64,000 nt of DNA from Alphaproteobacteria bacterium (GCA_035906055.1 JAMIFV010000013.1:2535-66534), one strand, 5' to 3'; counted from the stretch's first letter, positions 1-26,977 are shown. The notes: a model not told the origin generated them from the sequence alone. Numbers and translations are program-made.

Positions 1-875
1 TGAGAAAGCTGTATAAACTTAAAAACTGGTATTCATTGGAAGATGCTGCCAAGCGTCTGACGGTGACGCTGGAAGAAGATTTTTCCGTCAATGAACTTTT
101 GCGAATGGTAATTGAAGGCCATGTACCGCTTTCATGGTATATGCGCCATATTCCAGCAAGGGAAATGGCACCATATACGAAAATCTGGAATTGGGATAAA
201 GCAAGTCAGGTTCTTAAAAAGATTAGCGGCATTATAGAAGAACATGAACCTGACAAATTTCAGGTTTCCCCCTCCTTAGCGGCACAGTCGAAAGAAGTCG
301 ATTATCTGAATGGCATATATAGGCTTGACCTTGAAATGTCCGGGGCAATCAAGGACTGGATATTATCGCTTGTTACCAATACAGGCGGAAAATTAATAGG
401 CTTGGATGGATACTTCGTAAGAGATAGTGAGGGTAGCCTATGGCAAGTATTAGAGCAGTTTTCAAGAAAAGAGCAAAATGTGGAACGAGAAGCGTGTAAC
501 CTTCCTCCGCTTCCCATTGATTTAAGTAAATCCCCATTTCATCAGGACAATTATTATCCAAGTGATGGCTGTCCCGATGTAGAAGATTTGGGTATTACCA
601 GGCATGATTTAGAAGCATTTGAAGCATCACTAATTGATGCTCCATCACAAAAAGAGCGTCTGCTCAAAACAAATGAACGCAACACATTATACAAGCTGAT
701 TATTGGAATGGCGGTGGAAAACTATCGTTATAATCCCAACCTACTAAAAAGCAGTGCGGTAACGAATATTGCCAGTGCCTTGCAAAGAGCGAATGTCCCG
801 CTAAGTGATGACACCATCAGAAATAAATTAAGAGAAGCGGCAGAATTATTGCCTGAACCAGTAGGGAGACCCTAA
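1..875 (+). CDS. hypothetical island protein. The reading frame is open to base 3, so the ATG probably begins 1 nt before the window (a|TGAGAAAG = MRKLYKLKNW...).
   Basis: Long ORF in a low-GC region, open at the window edge. I recognise no motif. It lies upstream of the AlpA-like gene on the same strand. Confidence 0.5.
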   Translation, partial: RKLYKLKNWYSLEDAAKRLTVTLEEDFSVNELLRMVIEGHVPLSWYMRHIPAREMAPYTKIWNWDKASQVLKKISGIIEEHEPDKFQVSPSLAAQSKEVDYLNGIYRLDLEMSGAIKDWILSLVTNTGGKLIGLDGYFVRDSEGSLWQVLEQFSRKEQNVEREACNLPPLPIDLSKSPFHQDNYYPSDGCPDVEDLGITRHDLEAFEASLIDAPSQKERLLKTNERNTLYKLIIGMAVENYRYNPNLLKSSAVTNIASALQRANVPLSDDTIRNKLREAAELLPEPVGRP

Positions 876-971
876 ACCCAAAACCGAATTCGGAATAACA
901 TTCCCGAATTCGGCCACAACACATTTGTCCTGCATAGGATGGCTTCGTAACCTTTGATACGGAGTTATACT

Positions 972-1181
972 ATGACACACACTACCTCGCTTCCTGAAAC
1001 TGGTTTTATGCGGCTTCCTGCCGTGCTTGCCGTTATTCCCGTCAGTAAATCAACATGGTGGGCAGGGGTCAGGTCTGGCCGTTATCCCAAAGCCGTGAAG
1101 TTGGGGGTAAAAATTACCGCGTGGCGCGTAGAGGACATACGCGCTTTAATTGCGCAGCATTCTGATTCCGCTGGCCTGTAA
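972..1181 (+). CDS. AlpA-family (MerR-like HTH) prophage/island transcriptional regulator
   Basis: Sequence ...FMRLPAVLAVIPVSKSTWWAGVRSGRYPKAVKLG.. is typical of AlpA/Phage_AlpA. ATG at 972 is preceded by GGAG at 961-964. The ORF track starts at TTG 954. Confidence 0.8.
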   Translation: MTHTTSLPETGFMRLPAVLAVIPVSKSTWWAGVRSGRYPKAVKLGVKITAWRVEDIRALIAQHSDSAGL

Positions 1182-1196
1182 CACAGGCGATGTACC

Positions 1197-1709
1197 GTGA
1201 AGAAAACGCGCAAGCGCACCCACAACACGCGACTGATAAAGGATAATTACAGCTATTACATCGAGCAGATAGCTGACTTGTTCGGTATTGACGTTGCCAC
1301 GGTGCGCCGCTGGATACGCGAGGATGGGCTTGATCGCGTTCCTAATACACGTCCACATATAGTCCATAGCAGCAAACTGAAAGCGTTTATTGAAAGGCAA
1401 CAGGCGAAACGTAAAAAGCCCTGTGCCGATAACGAGGTTTTTTGTCTCCCCTGCCAATCTCCGCGCATACCTCTGGCAGGTAGCGGCGTGGTTGTTTCTC
1501 TCCCGAATGGCTGCATCAGCTTCAAGGCAAAATGCAGTAACTGCGGAGGCAAGGTTAATAGAAGCATTCAGGCAGCGCACTGGAACAAAAACCATCCACT
1601 TGCAGCGTTTTTAAGTGATGCCACGAGGGAACATAAGGGAGTGCAGCCAACGCACCGTGAATGTTCACTTCACATACAGGAGCAATTATGTCTGAATTTA
1701 ACCCCCTAA
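1197..1709 (+). CDS. HTH-domain protein with Cys-rich (zinc-ribbon-like) C-terminal half
   Basis: IEQIADLFGIDVATVRRWIRE looks like an HTH. CLPC...CSNCGG are paired cysteines. GTG start. The 3' end overlaps the integrase start by 22 nt. Confidence 0.5.
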   Translation: MKKTRKRTHNTRLIKDNYSYYIEQIADLFGIDVATVRRWIREDGLDRVPNTRPHIVHSSKLKAFIERQQAKRKKPCADNEVFCLPCQSPRIPLAGSGVVVSLPNGCISFKAKCSNCGGKVNRSIQAAHWNKNHPLAAFLSDATREHKGVQPTHRECSLHIQEQLCLNLTP

Positions 1710-2776
1710 ATGAACGTCTGAAAAAACAGTATGAAGATGCTTTACTGCACGATGCTTACCGTGAACAACGCACGGCAGATGCAGTATGGAAAGCCATAAA
1801 TCTGTTTGAACAATTTACAGGCAAAAGCGACTTTACCACTTTCAGCATGGAACAGGCTAAAGCGTTTAAGCGTTGGCTGGTGAAACAGGAAAATGGCAAG
1901 GGAGAATTACTTAGTCTCTCCACTGTACGCTCCACGCTTAAAATCCTGCGGGATTTTTTTAGCTGGCTGGCTCTACACCCCCAATATATCCGCAAGGTGG
2001 ATGGACGGGCGGCGGGCTATCTAAGGCTTTCCAATAATGCTGACCGGGCGGGACGTTCATCTAAAAGCCTGCCCGTGCCTACCGTGGAGGAAGTGCATAA
2101 AGTGCTGCTGGCCATGCCGCATGGTACAGAAATACAGAGGCGGGATAGGGCGATAATTGCGTTCATGGCACTTACGGGGGTGCGGGACGCGGCATTAATC
2201 AGCCTGAAAATGAAAGATGTGGATGTTGCCAAAAAAGAAGTATGGCAAGACCCTAAGCATGTGAAAACCAAGAACCGTAAAGCCATTTCCACCACCTTCC
2301 TGCCGTTTGATCCCCTGTGGCAGAAGATTGTGCTGGATTGGCTGGATTATGCCGTAAGCCAACTGGGCTTTACGCCTGATGAACCGATATTCCCCAAACA
2401 GGCGATAGTATCTAATCCTGTTACCCTGCAATTTGAGGTGACGGGTCTATCCCGTGAGCATCTCGCCAATGCAACGCCAATACGCCAGTTATTTCATGCG
2501 GCCTTCACGCTGGCGGGACTGCCCTATTATAACCCGCATTCGTTCCGCAAGATGCTGGCAATCTGGGCGCTGGAACATTGCACCCAACTGGAATTCAAGG
2601 CAATCAGCCAGAATATCGGCCATGAACATGCCGTGACCACTTATAACCACTATGGAACGCTTGATGACCATAAACGCCGCAGCGTTATCAGTGCCATAGG
2701 GACGGGCAAAACAGAGTTAAGCAACGTACCTATCGAGGTAATCATGGCGGAAATGCAGCGGCGGTTGCAGAGATAA
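1688..2776 (+). CDS. tyrosine site-specific recombinase / integrase
   Basis: Catalytic-type motifs LTGVRDAALISL, HSFRKM and GHEHAVTTYNHYG (R..H-x-x-R..H..Y). AGGAG RBS lies before ATG 1688. Confidence 0.85.
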   Translation: MSEFNPLNERLKKQYEDALLHDAYREQRTADAVWKAINLFEQFTGKSDFTTFSMEQAKAFKRWLVKQENGKGELLSLSTVRSTLKILRDFFSWLALHPQYIRKVDGRAAGYLRLSNNADRAGRSSKSLPVPTVEEVHKVLLAMPHGTEIQRRDRAIIAFMALTGVRDAALISLKMKDVDVAKKEVWQDPKHVKTKNRKAISTTFLPFDPLWQKIVLDWLDYAVSQLGFTPDEPIFPKQAIVSNPVTLQFEVTGLSREHLANATPIRQLFHAAFTLAGLPYYNPHSFRKMLAIWALEHCTQLEFKAISQNIGHEHAVTTYNHYGTLDDHKRRSVISAIGTGKTELSNVPIEVIMAEMQRRLQR

Positions 2777-2821
2777 AAGCAAACATTATGCAAGCTTGTT
2801 GATATTAATTACCCTGTCACT

Positions 2822-3154
2822 TCAATGCTTACCTTTCGAGGGAACTGGTGGTGGCATGACAGATTCGGCAGATTGCTCTTTCTGGCAAAATCGGCAGATA
2901 AGTGCCTCTCTTTTTATAATTTCTGCACAGAATGGGCATTTCTTGCCGTCCTCTGCCAGCCTGCGGGCATTCTCTGTATCCGGTCGCGCTTTCAGAAACA
3001 GGGAATGCAGTAGCGCAATCGGAAAGAAGAAAAGTCCATACACATACCAGACAAAGATGCTGTATCCTTTGTTTTTAGCAATCCCTGCCGGAAAGAACGC
3101 AAGGATGGTGGCCGTAATCAGCATTACTGGAAGGGTGTAATCTAGCGGTGACAT
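2822..3154 (-). CDS. small membrane protein with C-terminal zinc-ribbon (CPFC...CRFC)
   Basis: Two or three hydrophobic helices followed by CPFCAEIIKREALICRFC. Confidence 0.5.
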   Translation of the reverse strand: MSPLDYTLPVMLITATILAFFPAGIAKNKGYSIFVWYVYGLFFFPIALLHSLFLKARPDTENARRLAEDGKKCPFCAEIIKREALICRFCQKEQSAESVMPPPVPSKGKH

Positions 3155-3174
3155 ATTGGCGATTCCTGAAACCG

Positions 3175-3516
3175 TTAATCAATGCAAAATGTCTGGTAAA
3201 GGCCACCAATGCTGCGTTTCCATAATGTGCTACTTCCAGCCTCGTCTTCGGTAGGAATCATCCATACCTCATTGTCCGAATACATAAACTTGTGCCAGCC
3301 GCTATAGCCTCCGTAACCATTCTTGCTATTGATTTCTCCGCAGACAGTCACATGGCCTTCTTTCGATTTGTGAATGAACACATTGCGGTATTTCGTACTG
3401 GCCGGGTCTTTCAGTTCTTTTGCCATCGCCCGTTTGGCAGCCGCAATTGTTGGTGTATTCCCGGCATGGGCAGGCAGGGAAAGAAATAAAATAAGCAGAA
3501 TAGGAATATAGCGCAC
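3175..3516 (-). CDS. secreted hypothetical protein
   Basis: Signal-peptide-like RYIPILLILFLSLPAHA. I favour the GTG at 3516. The maximal ORF extends to 3594. Confidence 0.45.
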   Translation of the reverse strand: MRYIPILLILFLSLPAHAGNTPTIAAAKRAMAKELKDPASTKYRNVFIHKSKEGHVTVCGEINSKNGYGGYSGWHKFMYSDNEVWMIPTEDEAGSSTLWKRSIGGLYQTFCID

Positions 3517-3827
3517 ACTCGCCCCACAATCGCATAAGTTGGTGATCGGGCTGTTTGTAAACCGTAACAAGACGGTCACGGCGCTTTCGGCCAAAGACCT
3601 ATTATATAACGCCGTCAGCCCGACCGCATGGGTCGAGAGACGGCATCACTTCACGGCTGATGCTATTGCCGCTTGTTAAGAGGTTACAAAGCCCCGCAAG
3701 CGCCACTGCGCACTTGCAGACGAAAGCATAGGTAGAATCATATGGAAGTCAAACATAGTCTGATCGCATATAGAAACTTGTTTGCCATACAACTCTAACG
3801 GTAATAAGGTTATGACATTTCACAAAT

Positions 3828-6299
3828 ATGGAGATGACATTGTCCGTAAAAGATTTAGTAACGCCAATTTCCACGGTTGAGAAAGGCAACACATTTCGAG
3901 AACATGTAGCCAGAGTATTTAGTGCTGCTGGATGGGAAGTGGAAGCTACAGAATATAGGGCAGGTCACATCAAAGCCGATGCATTATGCTGGAATGTTAC
4001 CAATTCATTTGGCAGTACTTCCCGTCTTCTTGTGGAAGCAAAAGATTACAATGGCACTTTATCAAAAGATGAATGTCATAAATTTATAAATAATTACCTT
4101 CCACATGTAGGCCGGGGCACAGACAAATACGGAGAAGCTTGGTTAGTTTCCAAAGGCCCGATAGCGCCAGATGCACGAGAAATGGTGAATTCTAATCTTG
4201 GATTATATGCAATGGATTTTGTTACATTGCAGCGCCGTTTATTTAATGTAGATCGACTCATAGAATTGGCCGTAAACGAATATCGCAGAGAAGACATTGA
4301 TGGCTGCTTCATTCCCCCTCACCTTGTAAATGGCAATAGTTTACGCGAGCGGGTAATAAATTGGCTAGAAGAAGCTCGTGCAAAACCCCTTGCAATTATC
4401 GGAGCATATGGAACAGGAAAATCTACGTTTTCCTTACATTTAGCCGCATTCTTGGCCGAGCAGTCAAAACATGACCCCTGTAAACGTGTGCCTATCCGGA
4501 TTCCGTTAGCAGAAGTATATGATGAACAATCAATGGATGGGTTATTCGGAAAATTACTTGCTAGCCAGAATCGAATTCCAAACTATCACTTTGATCTGTT
4601 TTGTGAATTAAACGAAGCTGGACGTTTTGTCTTAATCTTTGACGGTTTTGATGAAATGAAGCACGGCATGACCATACAAACATTTGAACGTAATGTTAAT
4701 CGACTGCTATCTCTTGATAAAGGCAATGCAAAAATAATCATTCTTGGGCGTGACACTGCTTTGCATGACGAGCATGAATTCCGTTCAATAATTGATGGAG
4801 TGAAGCGTACCAGCAATGGAAACAATGTGCAGGTAGAAGGAAGACGGGCTTTTGAACCCCTTTTGCTTCGCGATTTCTCCGTACAAGAAGCACATGATTT
4901 TGTTCGCAGGTTCTTTCCTGTCCAAGCGCATAAAGTTGCAGAGGGAACTCACCCACTCACAGAAGAATGGATATCGACCAGAATTACTGAACTTACATCA
5001 GGCACCTTAGATGAACTGCTTGTTCGCCCTGTCCATGCCAGAATGTTATGTCAAGTGGCCACGCAGGATTCCGTAAATTTGAAACAACTTACGCGTTTTG
5101 ATTTATATGATTTATTTGTTCACCACCTGCTGGATCGTGAAACAAGAAAAAAAGTTCGGTATGATGGCTTTGACTTGGATTGTCGCAGATATTTTAATGG
5201 GGCGATTGCTTGGTGGTTGTGGGCATTAGGGGGGGCTTCTACCACTACTCTTGCCGATATTCCTGATAACCTGCTTAAAGAATCCACCAAAGGTATTCAG
5301 CATAGTTTTGCGGAACCCGAGTTACGGCGCGAACTTGCTGCAGGATTGTTGGTCGAGAAGAGAGAAGGTGAAGTTATTTATTTTGCGCATCGCTCTATTC
5401 AGGAATTTCTTGTAGCCGAGCATCTTATTAAAACCAAATTATTGCAAAGCACTGGCGCAGGAGCGCCAGATTTACGAAAAATCCTACCTCTCATGAACGA
5501 GGTGGTTCTGGACTTTCTGAACCAACATTTGGATAAGGATGAAACTGGCGTAGAACGTAAGGAATGGGTCGCGCTTTTAAGCCGACTGCTTGGCTCCGAT
5601 ATTACTGTATCTTGGTTGGAAGTATTCCGTAGGGCTGTGACCGGGCATGAAGAATTAATTGAAACTGCACCAGCCGCTTGGCAACCCGTATTAACTTTTC
5701 TGGCTGCAAACGGCGTTAGTGATTTACACATCCGTACAAACCCTGCAGCAGCCACTATCGAGCTATTGTTAGATAAGTTGGCTCAAACAAAAGCACTATC
5801 AGTACAAGCATCTATACTGATGTTGGCCGCTCGGGTAGCCCAAACAACAGAAAAGGTGGCAACATTAGTGCCGCGTCTGATAGCACGCTGCCTTCCCGCA
5901 CAAGCCATTGCGAAAGTTACGACAGAATTCAACAATAACAGAGCAAAAAATTACCGCTCCCATATTTTAAGAGACGAAAATGTGCCTTTCTGGACGTTCT
6001 TACGTTCGGTTGGTCTTGAAAGACAGAATACTGGTGAATGGTACTTTTTTATCGATTTGCGGAAGATTGAAGACGATATGTCGGAACTGGCTGGTTATAG
6101 TTTTACACGATCAGGCACACCACCAGCACCTGTAACAGTTAGCGAAAAGGATGTACGAAACTTTTTTCCATCAGGTGAGAACGGCAATATCATCAAACAA
6201 TTTGTGGCAAATGCTGAATTGCGAAAGCATGTAAGTCCACTGATTGTCCAGACAACTCCTAATAAAGAGAAAATGTCACTCAAAAATCATAAAAACTAA
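3828..6299 (+). CDS. STAND NTPase: N-terminal Mrr-like PD-(D/E)xK nuclease domain + NACHT NTPase + helical C-terminal region
   Basis: GNTFREHVARVF..IKADALC..LLVEAKDY is restriction-endonuclease-like. Walker A is GAYGTGKST. NACHT-type Walker B is FVLIFDGFDEM. HRSIQEFLVAEHL is a winged-helix motif. About 400 aa of helical C-terminus follow. Confidence 0.8.
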   Translation: MEMTLSVKDLVTPISTVEKGNTFREHVARVFSAAGWEVEATEYRAGHIKADALCWNVTNSFGSTSRLLVEAKDYNGTLSKDECHKFINNYLPHVGRGTDKYGEAWLVSKGPIAPDAREMVNSNLGLYAMDFVTLQRRLFNVDRLIELAVNEYRREDIDGCFIPPHLVNGNSLRERVINWLEEARAKPLAIIGAYGTGKSTFSLHLAAFLAEQSKHDPCKRVPIRIPLAEVYDEQSMDGLFGKLLASQNRIPNYHFDLFCELNEAGRFVLIFDGFDEMKHGMTIQTFERNVNRLLSLDKGNAKIIILGRDTALHDEHEFRSIIDGVKRTSNGNNVQVEGRRAFEPLLLRDFSVQEAHDFVRRFFPVQAHKVAEGTHPLTEEWISTRITELTSGTLDELLVRPVHARMLCQVATQDSVNLKQLTRFDLYDLFVHHLLDRETRKKVRYDGFDLDCRRYFNGAIAWWLWALGGASTTTLADIPDNLLKESTKGIQHSFAEPELRRELAAGLLVEKREGEVIYFAHRSIQEFLVAEHLIKTKLLQSTGAGAPDLRKILPLMNEVVLDFLNQHLDKDETGVERKEWVALLSRLLGSDITVSWLEVFRRAVTGHEELIETAPAAWQPVLTFLAANGVSDLHIRTNPAAATIELLLDKLAQTKALSVQASILMLAARVAQTTEKVATLVPRLIARCLPAQAIAKVTTEFNNNRAKNYRSHILRDENVPFWTFLRSVGLERQNTGEWYFFIDLRKIEDDMSELAGYSFTRSGTPPAPVTVSEKDVRNFFPSGENGNIIKQFVANAELRKHVSPLIVQTTPNKEKMSLKNHKN

Positions 6300-6322
6300 T
6301 CGCCTATGGAGCATATAAGCAT

Positions 6323-8629
6323 TTGTTGAATATTATAAAAAACCTTTTTCTCAAAACAAAAGAAAGTAGCGATTCGGTTGCTGAACCAACGTGCGTATCT
6401 GCTCCCCTAAAAGACACCGCACAAAATTTTGACTTCGATTCTGACCGCCCCATACATTCAATCGATCAGGACAGGCTTGGATTTGGCGCGATTGCGGAAA
6501 AACTGGCAGTATCTGTACTTAGTGCCAGTGCCAGCGAAGGGCTAGTCATAGGCATTGAAGGAAGTTGGGGATCGGGAAAATCCAGCATCCTGAATTTGCT
6601 ATGCCAAAATATTGAGAAGCATACAAAAGATGCCACAGTAATCAGGTTTGAGCCGTGGGTGGTGGGCGACCGTGATAATATGGTTGCTACACTCCTTACT
6701 GATTTGGCAACCGCAGTTGCCCGGCTTGATCGCGCAGAGAAAAAGACATTAAGTAACGATACGAAGGCTGCCATTGGATTATCAAAAACATTACGCAAAT
6801 ATGCTGCAAAAACCGGAAAAGGCATATCCCCTCTAATCAAATTCGCGTCCGTTTGTGGCATTCCTTACACTTCGCTCGTTAAAGACGGTTTGGATGCTGC
6901 CGTGGATGCTATGGAGGTAAAGGAAAAAAATACGCCCTTATCCTCACAAAAGCAGGAACTGGCAAAGGAATTGCGCGATTTCAAGCACAGGTTCATAGTG
7001 GTTATTGATGACATTGACCGCCTGGAACCGGCCGAAGCGGCAGAGATTGTGAGGCTTGTAAGGGCAGTGGGCGATTTTCCCAATATTGTTTACCTGCTGT
7101 GTTATGACCGCGATGTTTTGGCGCACAGTTTGGAAAACGCTATCGAAGTAATTGATGGCAAGGCATTCTTGCAAAAAATCGTTCAAATCAGCTTTCCAGT
7201 TCCCCGGCCGGAAGAATTCGATTTGCGCCGTTGGTTCTTTGAAGAATGCACCAACCTGCATTCGGTAGTGATAGGACAAGAATTGGGTAAGGAAGTTTCG
7301 GAACGTCTTGCAGCTGTTTGTGATACACAGGGGCAGTTGCTGCAAACTCCGAGGGATGTAGGCCATGTTGTGAATGCGTTGCGGCTTGTTTATCCGGCCA
7401 TAGCAAACAACGTGGATTTTGCAGACCTTTGCTGGCTGCAGATACTACGCCTTAAAAACGATGCCGTGTATAAATGGGTTGAAGAATACCTTAACGTCTT
7501 TGCGGCAGTGAAAATAGACCGCGCCAGTGTGAATGAAGGCGAAGAAGCAGCCCTAACAGATAGATTGGGCAAGCTGTTGTCGGATACGACAATAAGCACT
7601 TCACCACACTCTGTCTGGTATTTTGGGCAATACATTCCCGGTGTCGTACAAGGTAGTATGGGAGATTTAAGAGAAATTACAGTACTGCAGGAAGTTAATG
7701 AAGACGAACTTATTGAACTAGAAAGAAATAACAGGTTGGGAAGCCCACATCATTATCGCCTGTATTTTGCATTTTCCCAACCCGCCGGAACCTTGCATGA
7801 CACAGAATTAAGCACGCTCATAGATAATGCTGATAATGGCATAAGCATTGTTGACGAGCTTGAACAACTTGTGGATAAAAAGCGCCCGCAGGGCGGGACT
7901 ATGTATGAAGTGATGCTGGACAGGATAAAACGCATACCTGCCGGACAGTTATCACTGCAAGCAGCCCAAGTTATTCTTTCAGCGATTGGTGATACGGTTG
8001 ATAGGGCGCAGCATAATGAAAGAGAAGCAGGATTTTTTGGAAGAAAGCTGGTTTGGCATAATGCAAAAACAGTTTTCAGCGGAGTGCTTAAAAGAATCGA
8101 CACCAATGACAGAAAAACTTTTCTCGATGATTTCTTCACAAACCGCAAATCCATAGGATGGTTACTGGCGGAGATTATTGGAGACGAACTCTTTGCGCAT
8201 GGTAGAACTGGCAATAATACGCATAATTACGACAAAACCTTGCTGACCAAAGACGAGCTTGATGTTGTGATAAAAATTATGTTCTCGCGCTTGGCAGGTA
8301 CGGATCGCGACAATATTATTGGAGTGCCAAGTTCCGTGGAGTTTTTCTATCGCTGGCATCAGGCTGGCGGTGATGCTGATTTGAAACGATGGATGGATGA
8401 ACAATCGCAGACGGATAAAGGCTTCCTGACATTAATGGGAAAATGCCGGGGATGGGCTGCTTCTGGGAAAGAAGTGTACCATCCCCTGAACAAGCGCGAT
8501 TTACAAGTGTTTATGGATTTTGATCAGGCTGTGAAACGACTGCAAAGCATTTCGCAGGATATAAATAAGCCTGCCGAAGATCGGCATTTAGCAAAGGAGT
8601 TGCTTGAAGCTGTGCGTATCCGGGATTAA
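6323..8629 (+). CDS. KAP-family P-loop NTPase
   Basis: LVIGIEGSWGSGKSSILN is the Walker A. FIVVIDDIDRLEPAEAAEIVRLVRAV..VYLLCYDRDVL is the KAP signature. TTG start lies 24 nt after the NACHT gene stop. Confidence 0.8.
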   Translation: MLNIIKNLFLKTKESSDSVAEPTCVSAPLKDTAQNFDFDSDRPIHSIDQDRLGFGAIAEKLAVSVLSASASEGLVIGIEGSWGSGKSSILNLLCQNIEKHTKDATVIRFEPWVVGDRDNMVATLLTDLATAVARLDRAEKKTLSNDTKAAIGLSKTLRKYAAKTGKGISPLIKFASVCGIPYTSLVKDGLDAAVDAMEVKEKNTPLSSQKQELAKELRDFKHRFIVVIDDIDRLEPAEAAEIVRLVRAVGDFPNIVYLLCYDRDVLAHSLENAIEVIDGKAFLQKIVQISFPVPRPEEFDLRRWFFEECTNLHSVVIGQELGKEVSERLAAVCDTQGQLLQTPRDVGHVVNALRLVYPAIANNVDFADLCWLQILRLKNDAVYKWVEEYLNVFAAVKIDRASVNEGEEAALTDRLGKLLSDTTISTSPHSVWYFGQYIPGVVQGSMGDLREITVLQEVNEDELIELERNNRLGSPHHYRLYFAFSQPAGTLHDTELSTLIDNADNGISIVDELEQLVDKKRPQGGTMYEVMLDRIKRIPAGQLSLQAAQVILSAIGDTVDRAQHNEREAGFFGRKLVWHNAKTVFSGVLKRIDTNDRKTFLDDFFTNRKSIGWLLAEIIGDELFAHGRTGNNTHNYDKTLLTKDELDVVIKIMFSRLAGTDRDNIIGVPSSVEFFYRWHQAGGDADLKRWMDEQSQTDKGFLTLMGKCRGWAASGKEVYHPLNKRDLQVFMDFDQAVKRLQSISQDINKPAEDRHLAKELLEAVRIRD

Positions 8630-8789
8630 TAAATACCGCAACGGATCGAAAGCCTTCAAAGTAATACTATCATTACATTATGTGGGTGAAATTGCGGGTT
8701 AAAGCACAGTTCATTGTGCTGGTAATGTTTGGATTATAAAGTGTTAGCCTCTAATTGTGAATGCTGGCACCATGTAGGACATAGGACAT

Positions 8790-8862
8790 AGTGATGTGTA
8801 TATTGCACTTCTTGAAAACCTCCCTGTTTTCGCCTCGCTGCAGCGAAACTATGAACAGGCTC
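8790..8862. repeat. family-B repeat, copy B1. The right half is clear and the left half is degenerate.
   Basis: ...cttgaaaacctccctgttttcgcctcgctgcagcgaaactatgaacaggctc aligns with 19885-19940. Confidence 0.6.
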
Positions 8863-8920
8863 TAATATCAGGGGCAATAAAAAAGCTTACTCCTCTGTAA
8901 ACTATGCTTATAATGGCCGC

Positions 8921-9775
8921 ATGGACATTAAACATTTCTTTGACAGCGATACTGCCACCTTCACCTATGTGGTGAGCGACCCTTCCACCGGCAACTGCGC
9001 CATCATCGATTCCGTGCTCGACTACGACATGGCGTCGGGCAGGACGTCCACACGTTGCGCCGATGCGGTGATCGCTTATGTGAAAGCGCAGGGGCTGGAT
9101 GTGCAGTGGATACTGGAAACGCATGTGCATGCAGACCACCTGACCGCGTCGCATTACCTGAAGGAACAGCTGGGTGGCAGGATCGGCATCGGCGAGCATG
9201 TGAAGGACGTGCTGGCGTACTGGGTGCCGCTGCTGAACAACGGGCATGACACCCCGCTCGACGGCTCGCAGTTCGACCACCTGTTCAGGGAAGGCGAAGT
9301 GTTCGCCATCGGCAGCATTCAGGTGAAGGTCATCTACACGCCTGGCCATACGCCCGCCTGTGTATGCTACCATATGGGCGAAGCGGTGTTCGTGGGCGAT
9401 ACCATCTTCATGCCCTATGTGGGCACGGCGCGCACGGATTTTCCCGGCGCCAGCGCGGCCACGCTCTATAACTCCATCCAGAAACTCTATGCGCTTTCCG
9501 ATAACACGCGCATCTATGTCTGCCATGATTACCCCAGGGAAGGCGACAAGGAACAGTGCTTCACCACCATCGCCGAAGAAAAGAAGGCCAACGTGCTGGT
9601 GCATCAGGGCATAGGCAAGGCGGATTATGTGCAGACGCGCAATGCGCGCGACGCGGGTAAACCGGTGCCGCGCTTGTTGCTTCCCTCATTGCAGGTGAAC
9701 CTGCGCGCGGGCGGATTCGGCAAGCCGGAAAGCAACGGCGTTCAGTATATAAAGATCCCGGTCGATAAAGTGTAA
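8921..9775 (+). CDS. MBL-fold metallo-hydrolase
   Basis: THVHADH metal-binding motif. N-terminus FTYVVSD...CAIIDSVLDY is typical of the glyoxalase-II-like family. Confidence 0.85.
   Translation: MDIKHFFDSDTATFTYVVSDPSTGNCAIIDSVLDYDMASGRTSTRCADAVIAYVKAQGLDVQWILETHVHADHLTASHYLKEQLGGRIGIGEHVKDVLAYWVPLLNNGHDTPLDGSQFDHLFREGEVFAIGSIQVKVIYTPGHTPACVCYHMGEAVFVGDTIFMPYVGTARTDFPGASAATLYNSIQKLYALSDNTRIYVCHDYPREGDKEQCFTTIAEEKKANVLVHQGIGKADYVQTRNARDAGKPVPRLLLPSLQVNLRAGGFGKPESNGVQYIKIPVDKV
9727..9757 (+). repeat. direct repeat copy 1 (3' end of the MBL gene, encodes ESNGVQYIKI)
   Basis: About 26/30 identity with 11225-11255. The mismatches fall at synonymous third codon positions. Confidence 0.7.
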
Positions 9776-9810: not shown

Positions 9811-11196
9811 TTGCCCGGCTTGCATACGCAAGCATACGTAACGAACGCAAGGATAACCGTAGTGAAGCTCGTAAATGCCCTCCCCGATCGTGACGTTTCA
9901 TTGCCTGCGGTTGAGCAGCAAAGAACCGCAGAGCCTGCGCCGGTGGATAAGGAAGCATTAGAAGCTATTGAGCGCGGCGACCGTATCGTTGTCATTCTGG
10001 GGCGGGCGGGCACCGGTAAAACCACGCTTATACGCTCTGTCATGGAGAACAGTTCTGTTAACCAGGTTGTTGTAGCGCCGACCGGTGTTGCGGCTGTGAA
10101 TGCAGGTGGACAGACCATTCACTCTTTCTTCCGTATTCCCCCGCGGCTGCATAATTTGTCTGAGATACAGCCCCGCAAGGGCGGTGGCCGATTATTCAAG
10201 AACCTCAAGCGGGTCATCATAGATGAAATTTCCATGGTGCGTGCGGATCTGCTGGATGCGGTGGACTATGCCCTGCAAATAAACCGCAAAGACCAGCGGC
10301 CCTTTGGCGGGGTGCAGATGGTGCTCGTGGGGGATTTCCTGCAATTGCCGCCTGTTGTGCGCGGTGATGAAGAGAGTATTCTTTCCGGCAAAGGATATGA
10401 AACCCCGTTTGCCTTCAGCGCAAAATGCCTGCGCAACAATCCTGTTACGTCCATAGAGCTTTCCAAGGTGCACCGGCAGGATAACCCTGACTATATCAAC
10501 CTGCTGGGCAATCTTCGTTCCGGCAATGAACTGGAGGCCACTATCGATGCTTTTAACGCCGCTTGCCTGGGGGGGCACAAACGCGATGCAGCTCCGATTA
10601 TTTTAACCGGTACAAATGCGGTGGCAGATAAACACAATGCCCTGGGATTAAACAGCTTATCCGGTGAAACAACCATTTATGAAGGCGCGATTGAGGGTGA
10701 ATTCAAGTTAGACAAGGACAAGCTGCCCGCGCCTGAATTGCTCGCCCTGAAAGCGGGCGCACGCATCATGATGGTAAAGAACGATATAGCCAGAAACTGG
10801 GTAAACGGTTCGCTTGGAACGATCACCCGTCTGGGAAAGGACCGTGTCTGGGTGAAAATAGACGGTAAAGAGCGGCAGTTCGAAGTTGGAAAGGCGGGGT
10901 GGGAAAATGTTCGTTATGAGTGGGATGAAACCACCCAGCATATTGAAGCAAAAGTGGTGGGCAGCTACTCGCAGATTCCCGTTATACCCGCCTGGGCTTT
11001 AACCATACATAAAGCGCAAGGGTTGACGCTTGAGAATGTGCGCATTGATCTGGAGCGCGGTGCTTTTGTTTCCGGACAGGCATATGTTGCATTGTCCCGG
11101 GCGCGTTCTTTAGAGGGGCTTTCCTTTGCATCCCCGCTCAGGGTTTCGGATATTATCATTGATGCACGGCTGCTTCCCAAAGCACGGCATGATTAA
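9811..11196 (+). CDS. Pif1/RecD-like SF1 helicase (AAA_30/PIF1 family)
   Basis: ILGRAGTGKTT (Walker A), VIIDEISMV (Walker B), LVGDFLQLPPV, TIHKAQGLT, AYVALSRARSLEGL. The start is uncertain: TTG 9811 or GTG about 9860. Confidence 0.8.
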   Translation: MPGLHTQAYVTNARITVVKLVNALPDRDVSLPAVEQQRTAEPAPVDKEALEAIERGDRIVVILGRAGTGKTTLIRSVMENSSVNQVVVAPTGVAAVNAGGQTIHSFFRIPPRLHNLSEIQPRKGGGRLFKNLKRVIIDEISMVRADLLDAVDYALQINRKDQRPFGGVQMVLVGDFLQLPPVVRGDEESILSGKGYETPFAFSAKCLRNNPVTSIELSKVHRQDNPDYINLLGNLRSGNELEATIDAFNAACLGGHKRDAAPIILTGTNAVADKHNALGLNSLSGETTIYEGAIEGEFKLDKDKLPAPELLALKAGARIMMVKNDIARNWVNGSLGTITRLGKDRVWVKIDGKERQFEVGKAGWENVRYEWDETTQHIEAKVVGSYSQIPVIPAWALTIHKAQGLTLENVRIDLERGAFVSGQAYVALSRARSLEGLSFASPLRVSDIIIDARLLPKARHD

Positions 11197-25714: not shown

Positions 25715-26977
25715 CTATTTTGCAGTAATCCTAAGAATCTTATCGGCATTCTGATTTATCAGCGCATGTATTCTTTCATAGACGGAAGAGTAAAGTTTCT
25801 GTGCGGTCAGCATGTCTATGAGCTTATGCGATAGTCTGGGCAGGGAAGATGCAAGTTTTATTAGCCGGGTACGCAGGTAAGGCATGCCTATGCCTGTTTC
25901 TTCAGCCATTTTTATCCAGTCACGATAAATGATTCGATCATGCAGATAAGCCCCCCCGATCTTCATGGCTACTTTTGTACTGAGGGCTGGATAAATGTGA
26001 GTAGAAAGCAAATCATAGAAAGGTGCGAGTATTAACCCGTTCTCTGCATGAAGAAATGAGAAATTCTTGCCATGCGCATCTGTATTGCCAATTAAATAAT
26101 TAAAAATCACAATGTCTGTCATTCGTAAGCGGTCTTTGGCGGGCTGAATGCTATAAGACTTCAACAAATCAAAGCATTGGGCCAGCGATGGCCCCCCTTC
26201 GCTCTGGTATTTTCTTTCGGGGGAAACTCCCAATGCCTGACAAAAATCTTCTTGATGGATACGAATAATTTTTCCTTCAAGGGCAGTGCGGTCGTAGCGT
26301 TCAATCATTAAGTAAGGAACCCCGGCTGCGGTTTGCGCCGAAACATTTGGTACAGGCACCAGCCCGGACACCATCTGCGCTAGCTGCATACAGAAAAACT
26401 CATTGGCAATACTCTGATCTACGCCGTGTATTGCAGGCTTTATAATGTGTGTGCTGTGCAGAGTTTCATTTGGTAAAGAAAATTCATTATCAAAGAATCT
26501 TACGACCATTTTATTCTGTGCGCCCGCCAGCGATAATTTTAACCCGCTTAAGCCCGCTAATAATGGCCTGTTAGGAAGAACACTTATCAGTTCTGCTAAT
26601 TTTTCTTCTTTCAGGTAATAGGGGGAGGATTGCGATGTTCTGGGGGGTAATTGCCCAGCGGGATATAAGGATATAGCGCCAGCGCACTCGCGTCCCAGCT
26701 CTTCTAATAAGGCATAGTCGTTTTTCTCGGAAACACCTAATATTTTTGCCAGTTTTGCGCGTACAGCATCATCAGGTAACAGGCCTGCAAAGAATGGACG
26801 GGTTTCAGCGTCTTCAAATTTTCTCTTTTTTAAAGGCAATGATACCGAAAGAGGCTTAGGGTTCTTAGAGGCTAACCATTTCTGATTATATTCAAATGCT
26901 AGGCGTCCGCTTTCGCGTTGCCTGAGAACGCCCACTTTATTTTCAAACAGATAAACATCCAGGTTTTTATCCGTCAT
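25715..26977 (-). CDS. hipA: type II toxin HipA-family serine/threonine kinase
   Basis: LSLAGAQNKM, HIIKP, ERYDR, IHQEDFCQALG, GNTDAHGKNFSFL. Confidence 0.9.
   Translation of the reverse strand: MTDKNLDVYLFENKVGVLRQRESGRLAFEYNQKWLASKNPKPLSVSLPLKKRKFEDAETRPFFAGLLPDDAVRAKLAKILGVSEKNDYALLEELGRECAGAISLYPAGQLPPRTSQSSPYYLKEEKLAELISVLPNRPLLAGLSGLKLSLAGAQNKMVVRFFDNEFSLPNETLHSTHIIKPAIHGVDQSIANEFFCMQLAQMVSGLVPVPNVSAQTAAGVPYLMIERYDRTALEGKIIRIHQEDFCQALGVSPERKYQSEGGPSLAQCFDLLKSYSIQPAKDRLRMTDIVIFNYLIGNTDAHGKNFSFLHAENGLILAPFYDLLSTHIYPALSTKVAMKIGGAYLHDRIIYRDWIKMAEETGIGMPYLRTRLIKLASSLPRLSHKLIDMLTAQKLYSSVYERIHALINQNADKILRITAK

Follow-up and report, generated by a model that had tools for sequence, protein, structure and literature searches.

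Two adjacent genes for P-loop NTPases in an alphaproteobacterial genome raise the question of whether they form a new two-gene anti-phage system or whether two defence genes that act independently have come to lie side by side. They were found in a stretch of 64,000 nucleotides (GCA_035906055.1, JAMIFV010000013.1:2535-66534), the whole of which is called here the window, where a gene for a NACHT protein with an N-terminal nuclease (ORF1) is followed by a gene for a KAP NTPase (ORF2). In the original prediction, made from the sequence alone, the two genes were proposed as a candidate two-gene module that did not correspond to any named defence system. From the evidence presented below it is likely that they are two autonomous single-gene defences of the abortive-infection type, stacked side by side as cargo at the distal end of a tRNA-Gln island, and neither ORF1 nor ORF2 is predicted to need the other.

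The island and the gene pair

The two genes had been assigned to a lower-GC island that also carries an integrase, and this assignment is borne out, since the GC content is 41-47% across positions ~3500-8800 vs 52-60% in the flanks and an integrase gene is present at 1661-2776. The start of the island lies outside the window and was read from L001, a copy of this locus that extends further; there the left end consists of a tRNA-Gln gene and a P4-type integrase (L001 913-2378), followed by AlpA. The features of the island that fall in the window are the following:

1..8830, no strand: right-hand part of the low-GC genomic island, the whole of which is ~10.3 kb (GC profiles, tRNA-Gln, L001 gene map)
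1197..1709, + strand: HTH_17 (excisionase-like) protein upstream of the integrase (Pfam E 9.1e-6, 26.3 bits vs a cutoff of 27)
1661..2776, + strand: tyrosine recombinase, the island's second integrase (Pfam Phage_integrase E 2e-14; gene in L001)
3828..6299, + strand: ORF1, bacterial NACHT protein related to NLRs, Mrr-type nuclease at the N-terminus, 823 aa (ORF call, Pfam, AF2, Foldseek)
6300..6322, + strand: 23-nt intergenic spacer with GGAG at 6309-6312, 10 nt upstream of the TTG (sequence)
6323..8629, + strand: ORF2, PifA homologue (KAP-family P-loop NTPase with a helical C-terminal region), 768 aa (PADLOC, Pfam, BLASTP, AF2)

The HTH_17 match is just under the Pfam threshold and is weak in the L001 annotation too, while the right edge of the island, at ~8700-8830, is placed by the GC shift only. 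No att direct repeat marking the island ends was found, and a search of the window for a second copy of the tRNA-Gln 3' end, with 3 mismatches permitted, gave none. Among E. coli genomes and plasmids there was no near-identical DNA, and a blastn search of E. coli for distant similarity matched an ABC-ATPase motif only. The host is an uncultivated bacterium of the Pseudomonadota and probably of the Alphaproteobacteria; a homology search with a core permease led to uncultivated Alphaproteobacteria-like MAGs, at 63-68% identity. In a related island (L023), with a 53%-identical integrase, the cargo includes a PifA homologue of 49% identity; Abi_alpha and unknown genes accompany it, and a NACHT gene is lacking.

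Both open reading frames are present at the predicted positions, and all the motifs quoted for them were found in the translations. The gap between them, given originally as 24 nt, is in fact 23 nt. Because of this short gap and of the lack of a terminator-like site between the two genes, ORF1 and ORF2 are probably co-transcribed, and the single operon that had been suggested for these genes, which share the same strand, is plausible.

Domain architecture of ORF1 and ORF2

ORF1 belongs to the NLR-related bacterial NACHT proteins and carries an Mrr-type PD-(D/E)xK domain. According to Pfam, residues 20-136 belong to Mrr_cat (E 8.9e-5, 23.0 bits vs a cutoff of 21) and residues 188-294 to NACHT (E 3.4e-7, 30.7 bits vs a cutoff of 26.7). 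These two matches, together with that of ORF2 to KAP_NTPase described below, confirm the domains originally named for the pair. The main features of ORF1, in which residue invariance was scored over 22 family members, are the following:

3885..4235, + strand: Mrr_cat PD-(D/E)xK nuclease, predicted effector, residues 20-136 (Pfam, family invariance, hhalign)
3978-3980, 4035-4037 and 4041-4043, + strand: catalytic candidates D51, E70 and K72, respectively (invariant in the 22 family members)
4401..4427, + strand: Walker A GAYGTGKST, residues 192-200 (Y194, G195, G197, K198 and T200 invariant)
4626..4658, + strand: Walker B and NACHT signature FVLIFDGFDEM, residues 267-277 (D272, D275 and E276 invariant)
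5388..5426, + strand: winged-helix motif HRSIQEFLVAEHL, residues 521-533 (H521, R522, S523, Q525, E526, F527 and L528 invariant)
5448..6296, + strand: family-specific hypervariable C-terminal domain, predicted sensor, residues 541-823 (identity profile, phmmer)

In the translation, the nuclease segments IKADALC and LLVEAKDY correspond to residues 48-54 and 67-74, and D272-G-F-D275-E276 fits D[GAS]hDE, the NACHT signature as defined in Kibby et al. The protein has the tripartite layout of NLRs, namely an N-terminal effector, a central STAND module with a winged helix and a C-terminal sensor region. Furthermore, the AF2 model of ORF1 (pLDDT 85.6) has as its top Foldseek matches NOD2 (1.6e-9), NLRC4, NLRP9, NLRP3 and Avs4 (4.2e-7), while a sequence search of solved structures gave no relative for either ORF1 or ORF2. 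Neither an NCH1 match at E <= 0.1 in Pfam nor any match in NCBIfam was obtained for ORF1, and the PADLOC search returned SspC matches alone, at the level of the P-loop and ~40 residues long. AVAST models are included in PADLOC v2, and none of them matched ORF1 beyond the P-loop. This silence is uninformative, because bNACHT25, a protein discussed below, also goes unrecognised by PADLOC v2.

The family of ORF1 comprises ~140 homologues of ~820 aa, is mainly alphaproteobacterial and is uncharacterised. Its C-terminal domain diverges much more quickly than the other parts of the protein, the within-family mean identity being 21% in residues 541-823 of ORF1 vs 51-55% in the NACHT module. When residues 540-823 were compared exhaustively by phmmer with 1.84 billion representatives, 12 matches were obtained. 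Seven of them are ORF1-family proteins of ~813-830 aa aligned at the same C-terminal position, four are shorter, with 241-413 aa, and the last is a 1958-aa protein that matches weakly and in several stretches. No conserved neighbour gene was found for the family, the members of which have SIR2+HerA among the defence genes adjoining them; five accessions of ORF1 relatives were looked for in Table S1 of Kibby et al. and none was found, and no ORF1 relative is encoded in the viral contigs. Conceivably, though with low probability, the family of ORF1 represents new Avs-like sensors, with a private, hypervariable C-terminal domain that might recognise a component of alphaproteobacterial phages.

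An Mrr_cat domain with intact D-ExK residues would also be expected if ORF1 were an NTP-dependent type IV or Mrr restriction enzyme, using the P-loop as a motor or switch and cutting modified or foreign DNA directly, and in some NCBI records the homologues do carry the name 'restriction endonuclease'. The weak P-loop matches to SspC models point the same way, but they span only ~40 residues round the P-loop, whereas the whole ORF1 model resembles NLRs and Avs4 and not McrB or other restriction motors. Moreover, the NACHT-specific D[GAS]hDE, the STAND winged-helix motif and a rapidly evolving C-terminal domain, typical of STAND sensors, all speak against a restriction enzyme, which we regard as very unlikely.

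As for ORF2, it had been presented as a member of the KAP family, largely uncharacterised, and this description has to be replaced: judged by profile and pairwise alignments, it is a full-length PifA homologue and so of known type, PifA being the T7-exclusion protein of the F plasmid and the product of a named abortive-infection gene. In fact, the PADLOC PifA model PDLC02361 matches ORF2 with an E value of 1e-220, residues 38-765 aligning on positions 5-716 of the 720 in the model, and BLASTP against F-type PifA gives 28% identity and 47% positives over residues 41-762 (E 3e-86). The KAP_NTPase domain extends over residues 56-358 (Pfam, E 4.4e-51). Weaker HMM matches were obtained with QatA (E 3e-26) and PDC-S20 (E 2e-21), the PifA model scoring far higher, and NCBIfam reported QatA, far under its cutoff. 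The view that the two genes are of defence type is upheld. The nucleotide-binding motifs of ORF2, for which invariance was judged among 22-25 PifA-like proteins, are:

6551..6586, + strand: Walker A GIEGSWGSGKSS, residues 77-88 (G80, W82, G83, G85 and K86 invariant)
6998..7030, + strand: Walker B VVIDDIDRLEP, residues 226-236 (D229, D230, D232, R233, L234 and P236 invariant)

The segment LLCYDRD corresponds to residues 258-264 of the translation. The start codon is a TTG, at 6323 or 6326, these being the sole in-frame start codons ahead of the conserved region. The AF2 model of ORF2 (pLDDT 80.2) has Foldseek matches to ORC/Cdc6 and to RdrA of RADAR, and the nearest relatives of the protein, 49-62% identical, form a distinct and mostly metagenomic clade. 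The absence of a transmembrane insertion in ORF2 was correctly noted, the highest 19-residue Kyte-Doolittle mean being 1.44; as an oddity of this protein it was rejected, since F PifA, with a maximum of 1.27, is also without one. By tblastn, no homologue of PifC was found in the window or in the L001 copy of the island. PifC is a regulator and not an effector; it is encoded upstream in 20 of the 84 PifA-homologue loci and in the IncF plasmid, in the order pifC then pifA.

Conservation of the pair and its interpretation

The recurrence of the pair in other genomes had been put forward as the check on a two-gene system, with homologues that are essentially never adjacent as the outcome speaking against it, and such is the outcome: the orthologues are essentially never neighbours. 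On the ORF1 side, the scan by tblastn and with a PifA-family HMM covered 21 loci, 19 of them in genomes and two belonging to the closest metagenomic homologues (58% identical), and no PifA or KAP gene was detected in any of them, within up to 10 kb. On the other side, an ORF1-like gene was detected at none of 160 loci of ORF2/KAP homologues, of which 76 are viral KAP loci and 84 are PifA-homologue loci, 53 of these including 2.5 kb or more of upstream sequence; many metagenomic loci are short, which lowers the power of this neighbourhood test. The exact pair was found in one organism only, in copies of the same locus, where a recent functional coupling of ORF1 and ORF2 may exist.

Because their relatives elsewhere are never neighbours, ORF1 and ORF2 are taken as two independent defences and not as a new two-gene system. 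The claim of an unnamed NACHT plus KAP system is not sustained, given the adjacency in 0/21 and 0/160 loci and the fact that both gene types are known, and the adjacency is best read as having arisen locally, through the stacking of defence genes in a mobile island. The defence activity of the two proteins is predicted by analogy. Following what is described for bNACHT25/32 and Avs4, the C-terminal domain of ORF1 would sense either a protein of the phage or a host factor altered by the phage; such sensing would lead to the NTP-dependent oligomerisation of ORF1 and to the activation of its nuclease, which would degrade DNA indiscriminately and so abort the infection. ORF2, on the model of F PifA, would sense particular phage proteins and respond with a collapse of membrane permeability or energy, with the infection again aborted.

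A genuine two-gene system, in which one protein senses and the other executes or the KAP protein regulates the NACHT nuclease, would agree with the shared strand, with the 23-nt distance free of terminators and with the defence-type NTPases encoded by both genes. It would also agree with a non-orthologous pair, consisting of a short KAP gene (PDC-S20-like) and then a NACHT-LRR gene, that is tightly linked and conserved in four viral contigs. The NACHT-LRR proteins of these contigs are 40-71% identical to one another, and tblastn with such a protein against phage records matched sequences of Listeria and Enterococcus in their LRR regions only; the viral pair appears to be undescribed so far. 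Because this pair is conserved, KAP and NACHT proteins may cooperate in some lineages. It is improbable, on the other hand, that KAP NTPases and NACHT/STAND proteins constitute a recurrent two-component defence logic of which the pair in the window would be one independently assembled instance. For ORF1 and ORF2 themselves, adjacency of orthologues is absent from the 21 ORF1-side and the 160 ORF2/KAP-side loci, each family is found alone and in varied neighbourhoods, the closest characterised relatives, bNACHT25 (PMC12169576) and F PifA, act singly, and sensor, switch and effector are already contained in the ORF1 polypeptide. A two-gene system is accordingly rated as about as improbable as a restriction function of ORF1. 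The least likely of the explanations is that one or both genes serve the island, by stabilisation/addiction or by the exclusion of competitors, with phage defence as an incidental effect: the genes do sit on an integrase island, and the phage range of F PifA is very narrow and its primary function has been questioned (PMC8594841, PMC13552941), but the relatives occur in varied chromosomal and plasmid contexts beside SIR2+HerA, Abi_alpha and PLD, and anti-phage activity has been measured for single KAP-NTPase proteins (PMC13552941) and for bNACHT proteins (PMC12169576).

The preferred reading, that of two stacked and independent defences, is as it stands a routine annotation of a defence island and its practical value is modest. 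It adds to the catalogue a diverged clade of PifA without PifC and an uncharacterised, mostly alphaproteobacterial family of Mrr-NACHT proteins of ~820 aa, neither of which is reached by the current PADLOC bNACHT coverage. The ORF1 family, in particular, offers a compact NLR-like nuclease with a rapidly evolving sensor, matched almost exclusively by proteins of its own family, and is thereby a tractable candidate for the discovery of triggers in hosts and phages outside Enterobacteria.

Comparison with known systems

Architectures joining Mrr_cat/REase to NACHT are found in clades 2, 3 and 6 (Kibby et al. Table S1). In clade 6, bNACHT25 and bNACHT32 of E. coli defend as single genes and require the nuclease residue D48, the D48A substitution abolishing the defence by bNACHT25 (Kibby et al., 2023; Conte et al., 2025, PMC12169576). 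ORF1 shares with them the organisation in a single polypeptide, in which an Mrr-like PD-(D/E)xK DNase is followed by a central NACHT and then by a helical C-terminal part, as well as a mobile-element setting, bNACHT25 being located in a Rac-like prophage. The two proteins, of 823 aa in ORF1 and 752 aa in bNACHT25, are collinear, ORF1 residues 21-538 aligning on residues 17-527 of bNACHT25 with an hhalign probability of 87%, an E value of 4e-6 and 18% identity. In this alignment K50-A-D51 of ORF1 lies opposite G46-A-D48, and HRSIQEFLVAEHL of ORF1 is aligned with HRSFMEYFYAE. Judged from these alignments, however, ORF1 and bNACHT25 are only remotely related: BLASTP joins them at the P-loop only (E 0.007), the NCH1 C-terminal domain is present in bNACHT25 (Pfam E 2.2e-38) and not in ORF1, and the ORF1 family is mainly alphaproteobacterial whereas bNACHT25 belongs to Enterobacteriaceae. 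The trigger of bNACHT25 is DnaJ-dependent, and it should not be presumed that the same holds for ORF1. A further likeness, matched by domain coordinates alone, is with clade 2, in which a protein such as Hymenobacter WP_157567192.1 has Mrr_cat at ~18-133 and NACHT to ~737, to be compared with Mrr_cat at 20-136 in ORF1; bNACHT20, 27, 30 and 37 are the tested members of this clade (Kibby et al.).

In Avs4 (AVAST type 4; Gao et al., 2022), as in ORF1, an Mrr-like nuclease precedes a STAND NTPase, and the ORF1 model matches that of Avs4 (8dgf_A) with an E value of 4.2e-7 and low TM-scores, 0.21/0.13. The expected logic would be common to the two proteins, with the binding of a phage protein leading to oligomerisation and this to the switching on of the nuclease. 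Avs4, however, has a length of ~1,500 aa and binds the portal protein through a large TPR sensor, whereas ORF1, with its 823 aa, has no TPR and ends in a compact and unrelated C-terminus.

Among the known systems with which ORF2 can be compared is RADAR, in which the ring subunits of RdrA (8hra, 8fnu) align over their full length with the ORF2 model with E values of 3e-5 to 1e-4 and a TM-score of ~0.3 only; no RdrB or QatBCD partner was found near ORF2. The closest likeness is with F PifA, a KAP NTPase of 741 aa vs 768 aa in ORF2, with the same Walker motifs and collinear over the full length, and neither protein has a hydrophobic segment of TM grade. The two differ in their setting, the F operon having the pifC repressor gene upstream, which is missing upstream of ORF2, and F PifA being encoded on the F plasmid, whereas ORF2 is chromosomal, in an integrase island of a non-enterobacterial host. 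Membrane permeabilisation triggered by T7 gp1.2 or gp10 is known only for F PifA (PMC8594841; Schmitt et al., 1991, cited in PMC13552941), and these T7 triggers are not expected to apply to ORF2. Finally, ectopic expression of F PifA has failed (PMC8594841), and the clade of ORF2 provides PifA homologues that might express more easily than F PifA.

The gene pair and its mobile island

The two long ORFs foreseen on a single strand of the window are present, and all the motifs quoted for them occur in their translations; both genes are real and were correctly described at the domain level. They are separated by 23 nt, so that same-strand orientation and tight spacing stand while the predicted gap of 24 nt does not. 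The 23-nt gap leaves no room for a terminator, and a GGAG lies 10 nt 5' of the TTG start of ORF2.

Features of the window
1661-2776, second integrase of the island (domain search)
3828-6299, plus strand, ORF1, Mrr_cat + NACHT protein, 823 aa, ATG start (ORF search)
6323-8629, plus strand, ORF2, PifA-like KAP NTPase, 768 aa, TTG start (ORF search)
8921-9775, plus strand, metallo-beta-lactamase-fold ORF, 284 aa (clear match, E 7e-20)
9811-11196, plus strand, PIF1-like/AAA_30 superfamily-1 helicase, 461 aa (PIF1 E 1e-30)
25715-26977, minus strand, HipA-family toxin kinase (HipA_C E 3e-51, Couple_hipA E 4.5e-26)

The lower-GC, integrase-bearing island is likewise confirmed, with a GC content of 41-47% over approximately 3500-8800 vs 52-60% in the flanks. 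The whole island can be read in L001, a longer (17-kb) copy of the same locus: tRNA-Gln comes first, then the P4-type integrase, an ORF of unknown function, AlpA and HTH_17, next the second integrase and a small ORF, and finally the NACHT and PifA-like genes, beyond which lie core genes at higher GC. A repeat search of island and window found no att repeat at the island ends. Short GTGGGT(T/G)AA-type repeats are paired near both ends, just 5' of the P4-type integrase (L001:1101-1124) and just 3' of ORF2 (window 8680-8704), and may be arm-type binding sites of an integrase or excisionase. The nearest named relatives of a core permease are Alphaproteobacteria-type MAGs (63-68% identity), and the host, which is uncultivated, belongs to Pseudomonadota.

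Downstream, two ORFs overlap on opposite strands at 8849-9775. The gene caller picked the minus-strand one (251 aa, without a domain match) for the Logan copy, and the plus-strand ORF is probably the real gene. The PIF1-like helicase lies just outside the island and is followed by a 206-aa ORF without a domain match, where GC dips to about 46%. GC is low again (44-46%) in a patch at about 25.5-27.5 kb that encodes the HipA-family kinase, which suggests another horizontally acquired toxin-antitoxin locus.

Domains and families of the two proteins

The combination of an Mrr nuclease with a NACHT module in ORF1 holds, both Pfam matches scoring above the curated cutoffs (Mrr_cat, residues 20-136, E 8.9e-5; NACHT, residues 188-294, E 3.4e-7). 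The family comprises about 140 homologues of about 820 aa; the identical copy of the locus excepted, they are 31-58% identical to ORF1, and their annotations go no further than 'NACHT domain-containing protein' or 'restriction endonuclease'. Those with a named source are alphaproteobacterial (Sphingomonas, Sphingobium, Bradyrhizobium, Azospirillum, Agrobacterium, Bosea, Devosia). Across 22 aligned members the invariant positions comprise D51, E70 and K72 of the nuclease, the Walker A residues, the NACHT-specific D[GAS]hDE signature (D272, D275 and E276) and an HRSxQEFL motif, which establishes the conservation of the catalytic residues. With a pLDDT of 85.6 the AF2 model is confident, and its fold matches best, in the PDB, NOD2, NLRC4, NLRP9 and NLRP3, then the Mrr-STAND protein Avs4. 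That ORF1, with its Mrr domain, is a type-IV-like restriction enzyme is very unlikely beside this NACHT signature and NLR-like fold.

The C-terminus of ORF1 is hypervariable, with a mean identity within the family of 21% over the last 280 residues vs 51-55% in the NACHT module. When 1.84 billion representative proteins were searched exhaustively, just 12 matched it: seven same-family proteins of about 820 aa at the same C-terminal position, four shorter proteins and a 1958-aa protein that matches weakly in multiple stretches. A fast-evolving sensor domain is expected to show this pattern.

ORF2 carries the anticipated KAP domain (KAP_NTPase, residues 56-358, E 4.4e-51). Moreover, the PADLOC PifA model matches it end-to-end (E 1e-220; residues 38-765 on model positions 5-716 of 720), the QatA and PDC-S20 models far more weakly. 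Relatives were found by tblastn in 1,129 plasmid records, the majority being IncF-type plasmids from Klebsiella and Escherichia. One of these has the matching gene immediately 3' of an annotated pifC, and the product of that gene aligns with ORF2 residues 41-762 (28% identity, 47% positives, E 3e-86). The lack of an obvious TM insertion was correctly noted and is normal for PifA, since neither ORF2 nor F-type PifA has a TM-grade hydrophobic segment. The deposited NCBI copy of ORF2 (P0121) has only 572 aa, starting at Met197 without the Walker A motif. The 768-aa TTG-initiated ORF is intact, with PifA homology beginning at residue 38, and the deposited annotation was probably cut short for lack of an ATG start.

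Neighbourhoods of ORF1 and ORF2 homologues

Among 19 genome loci with ORF1 homologues, none holds an ORF2 relative within flanks of up to 10 kb (tblastn; PifA-family HMM). What follows the two closest homologues (58% identity) is an unrelated gene or non-coding DNA, and clustering of all flanking ORFs revealed no conserved neighbour of any kind. Some homologues adjoin P4-type integrases and others SIR2+HerA, a known defence pair. In three Sphingomonas genomes (L009:7195-9947, L015 and L008) the homologue is directly beside SIR2_2-domain and HerA-type ATPase genes; members of the ORF1 family are therefore found in defence islands, beside neighbours that vary.

On the ORF2 side, 84 loci (80 metagenomic, two contigs of close homologues and two plasmids; 786 kb in total, with at least 2.5 kb upstream in 53) contain no ORF1-like gene (tblastn; ORF1-family HMM), and no ORF1 relative occurs in 76 viral-contig KAP loci. 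A PifC homologue lies immediately upstream in 20 of the 84, whereas the window has none. The neighbours of the closest PifA-like homologues vary and none is shared with the window: in L024, a PLDc_2 protein (247-1379) and, overlapping the stop codon, a DUF5677 protein (3958-4464); in L029, a 617-aa protein without a domain match (3950-5803), 129 nt upstream. The island of contig L023, whose P4-type integrase is 53% identical to that of the ORF1/ORF2 island, carries a 49%-identical PifA homologue, Abi_alpha and unknown genes, and no NACHT gene.

The exact pair was found only in copies of the same locus. This lack of adjacency elsewhere is a result that the original prediction had itself named as refuting, and the new two-gene NACHT + KAP module is not supported. 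Close spacing would suit an obligate two-gene system, which is very unlikely given homologues that are not adjacent in any of the loci covered. Element-selfish roles, for genes that are borne on a mobile island and have relatives beside other defence genes, are likewise very unlikely. Probably the two genes are co-transcribed yet functionally independent.

A different pair, conserved and tightly linked, was located in four viral contigs by a NACHT-signature scan of KAP loci.

KAP + NACHT-LRR pairs in IMG/VR viral contigs
L173:3393-7653
L178:1147-5483
L179:1119-5463
L182:1121-5466

The first gene encodes a KAP NTPase of only about 460 aa, which is PDC-S20-like (E 1e-29 to 3e-31 in PADLOC), and the second a NACHT-LRR protein of about 985 aa (range 981-1016) with Walker B DG[IV]DE, 40-71% identical among the four contigs; in L178 and L182 the two genes are separated by 5-6 nt. 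The L173 pair sits immediately 3' of lysis genes for endolysin and Rz. The NACHT partner is not covered by any PADLOC model, and a literature search found no published description of a KAP + NACHT pairing. This pair is not orthologous to ORF1/ORF2 and is the sole evidence that KAP and NACHT proteins may cooperate anywhere.

Comparison with known defence systems

The E. coli proteins bNACHT25 and bNACHT32 combine a PD-(D/E)xK DNase, NACHT and NCH1 and defend as single genes, an activity that the D48A mutation in the nuclease abolishes; DnaJ is the route by which bNACHT25 senses infection (PMC12169576). The full bNACHT25 gene was taken from an E. coli chromosome via the published insert sequence. 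BLASTP with ORF1 matches the P-loop only, whereas profile comparison is collinear over nuclease, NACHT and winged helix (probability 87%, E 4e-6, 18% identity). Mrr_cat/REase+NACHT architectures with ORF1-like domain coordinates are catalogued in clades 2, 3 and 6 (Kibby et al. Table S1). ORF1 lacks the Pfam NCH1 of bNACHT25 and lies outside the clade so defined; it represents a new family within an architecture that is already known. By analogy with bNACHT25 and Avs4, sensor engagement would lead to NTP-dependent oligomerisation, switching on the Mrr nuclease to degrade DNA.

Against T7, the classical abortive-infection gene of the F plasmid is PifA. Sensitivity depends on the T7 products gp1.2 and gp10, and membrane depolarisation or permeability lesions are described as the outcome (PMC8594841; PMC13552941). 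Phage proteins may similarly trigger abortive infection through ORF2, with membrane or energy collapse. The AF2 model of ORF2 (pLDDT 80.2) resembles ORC/Cdc6-type ATPases and, over its full length although at a TM of only about 0.3, RdrA, the ring-forming ATPase of RADAR. Each protein is new as an individual member, but of a kind already known.
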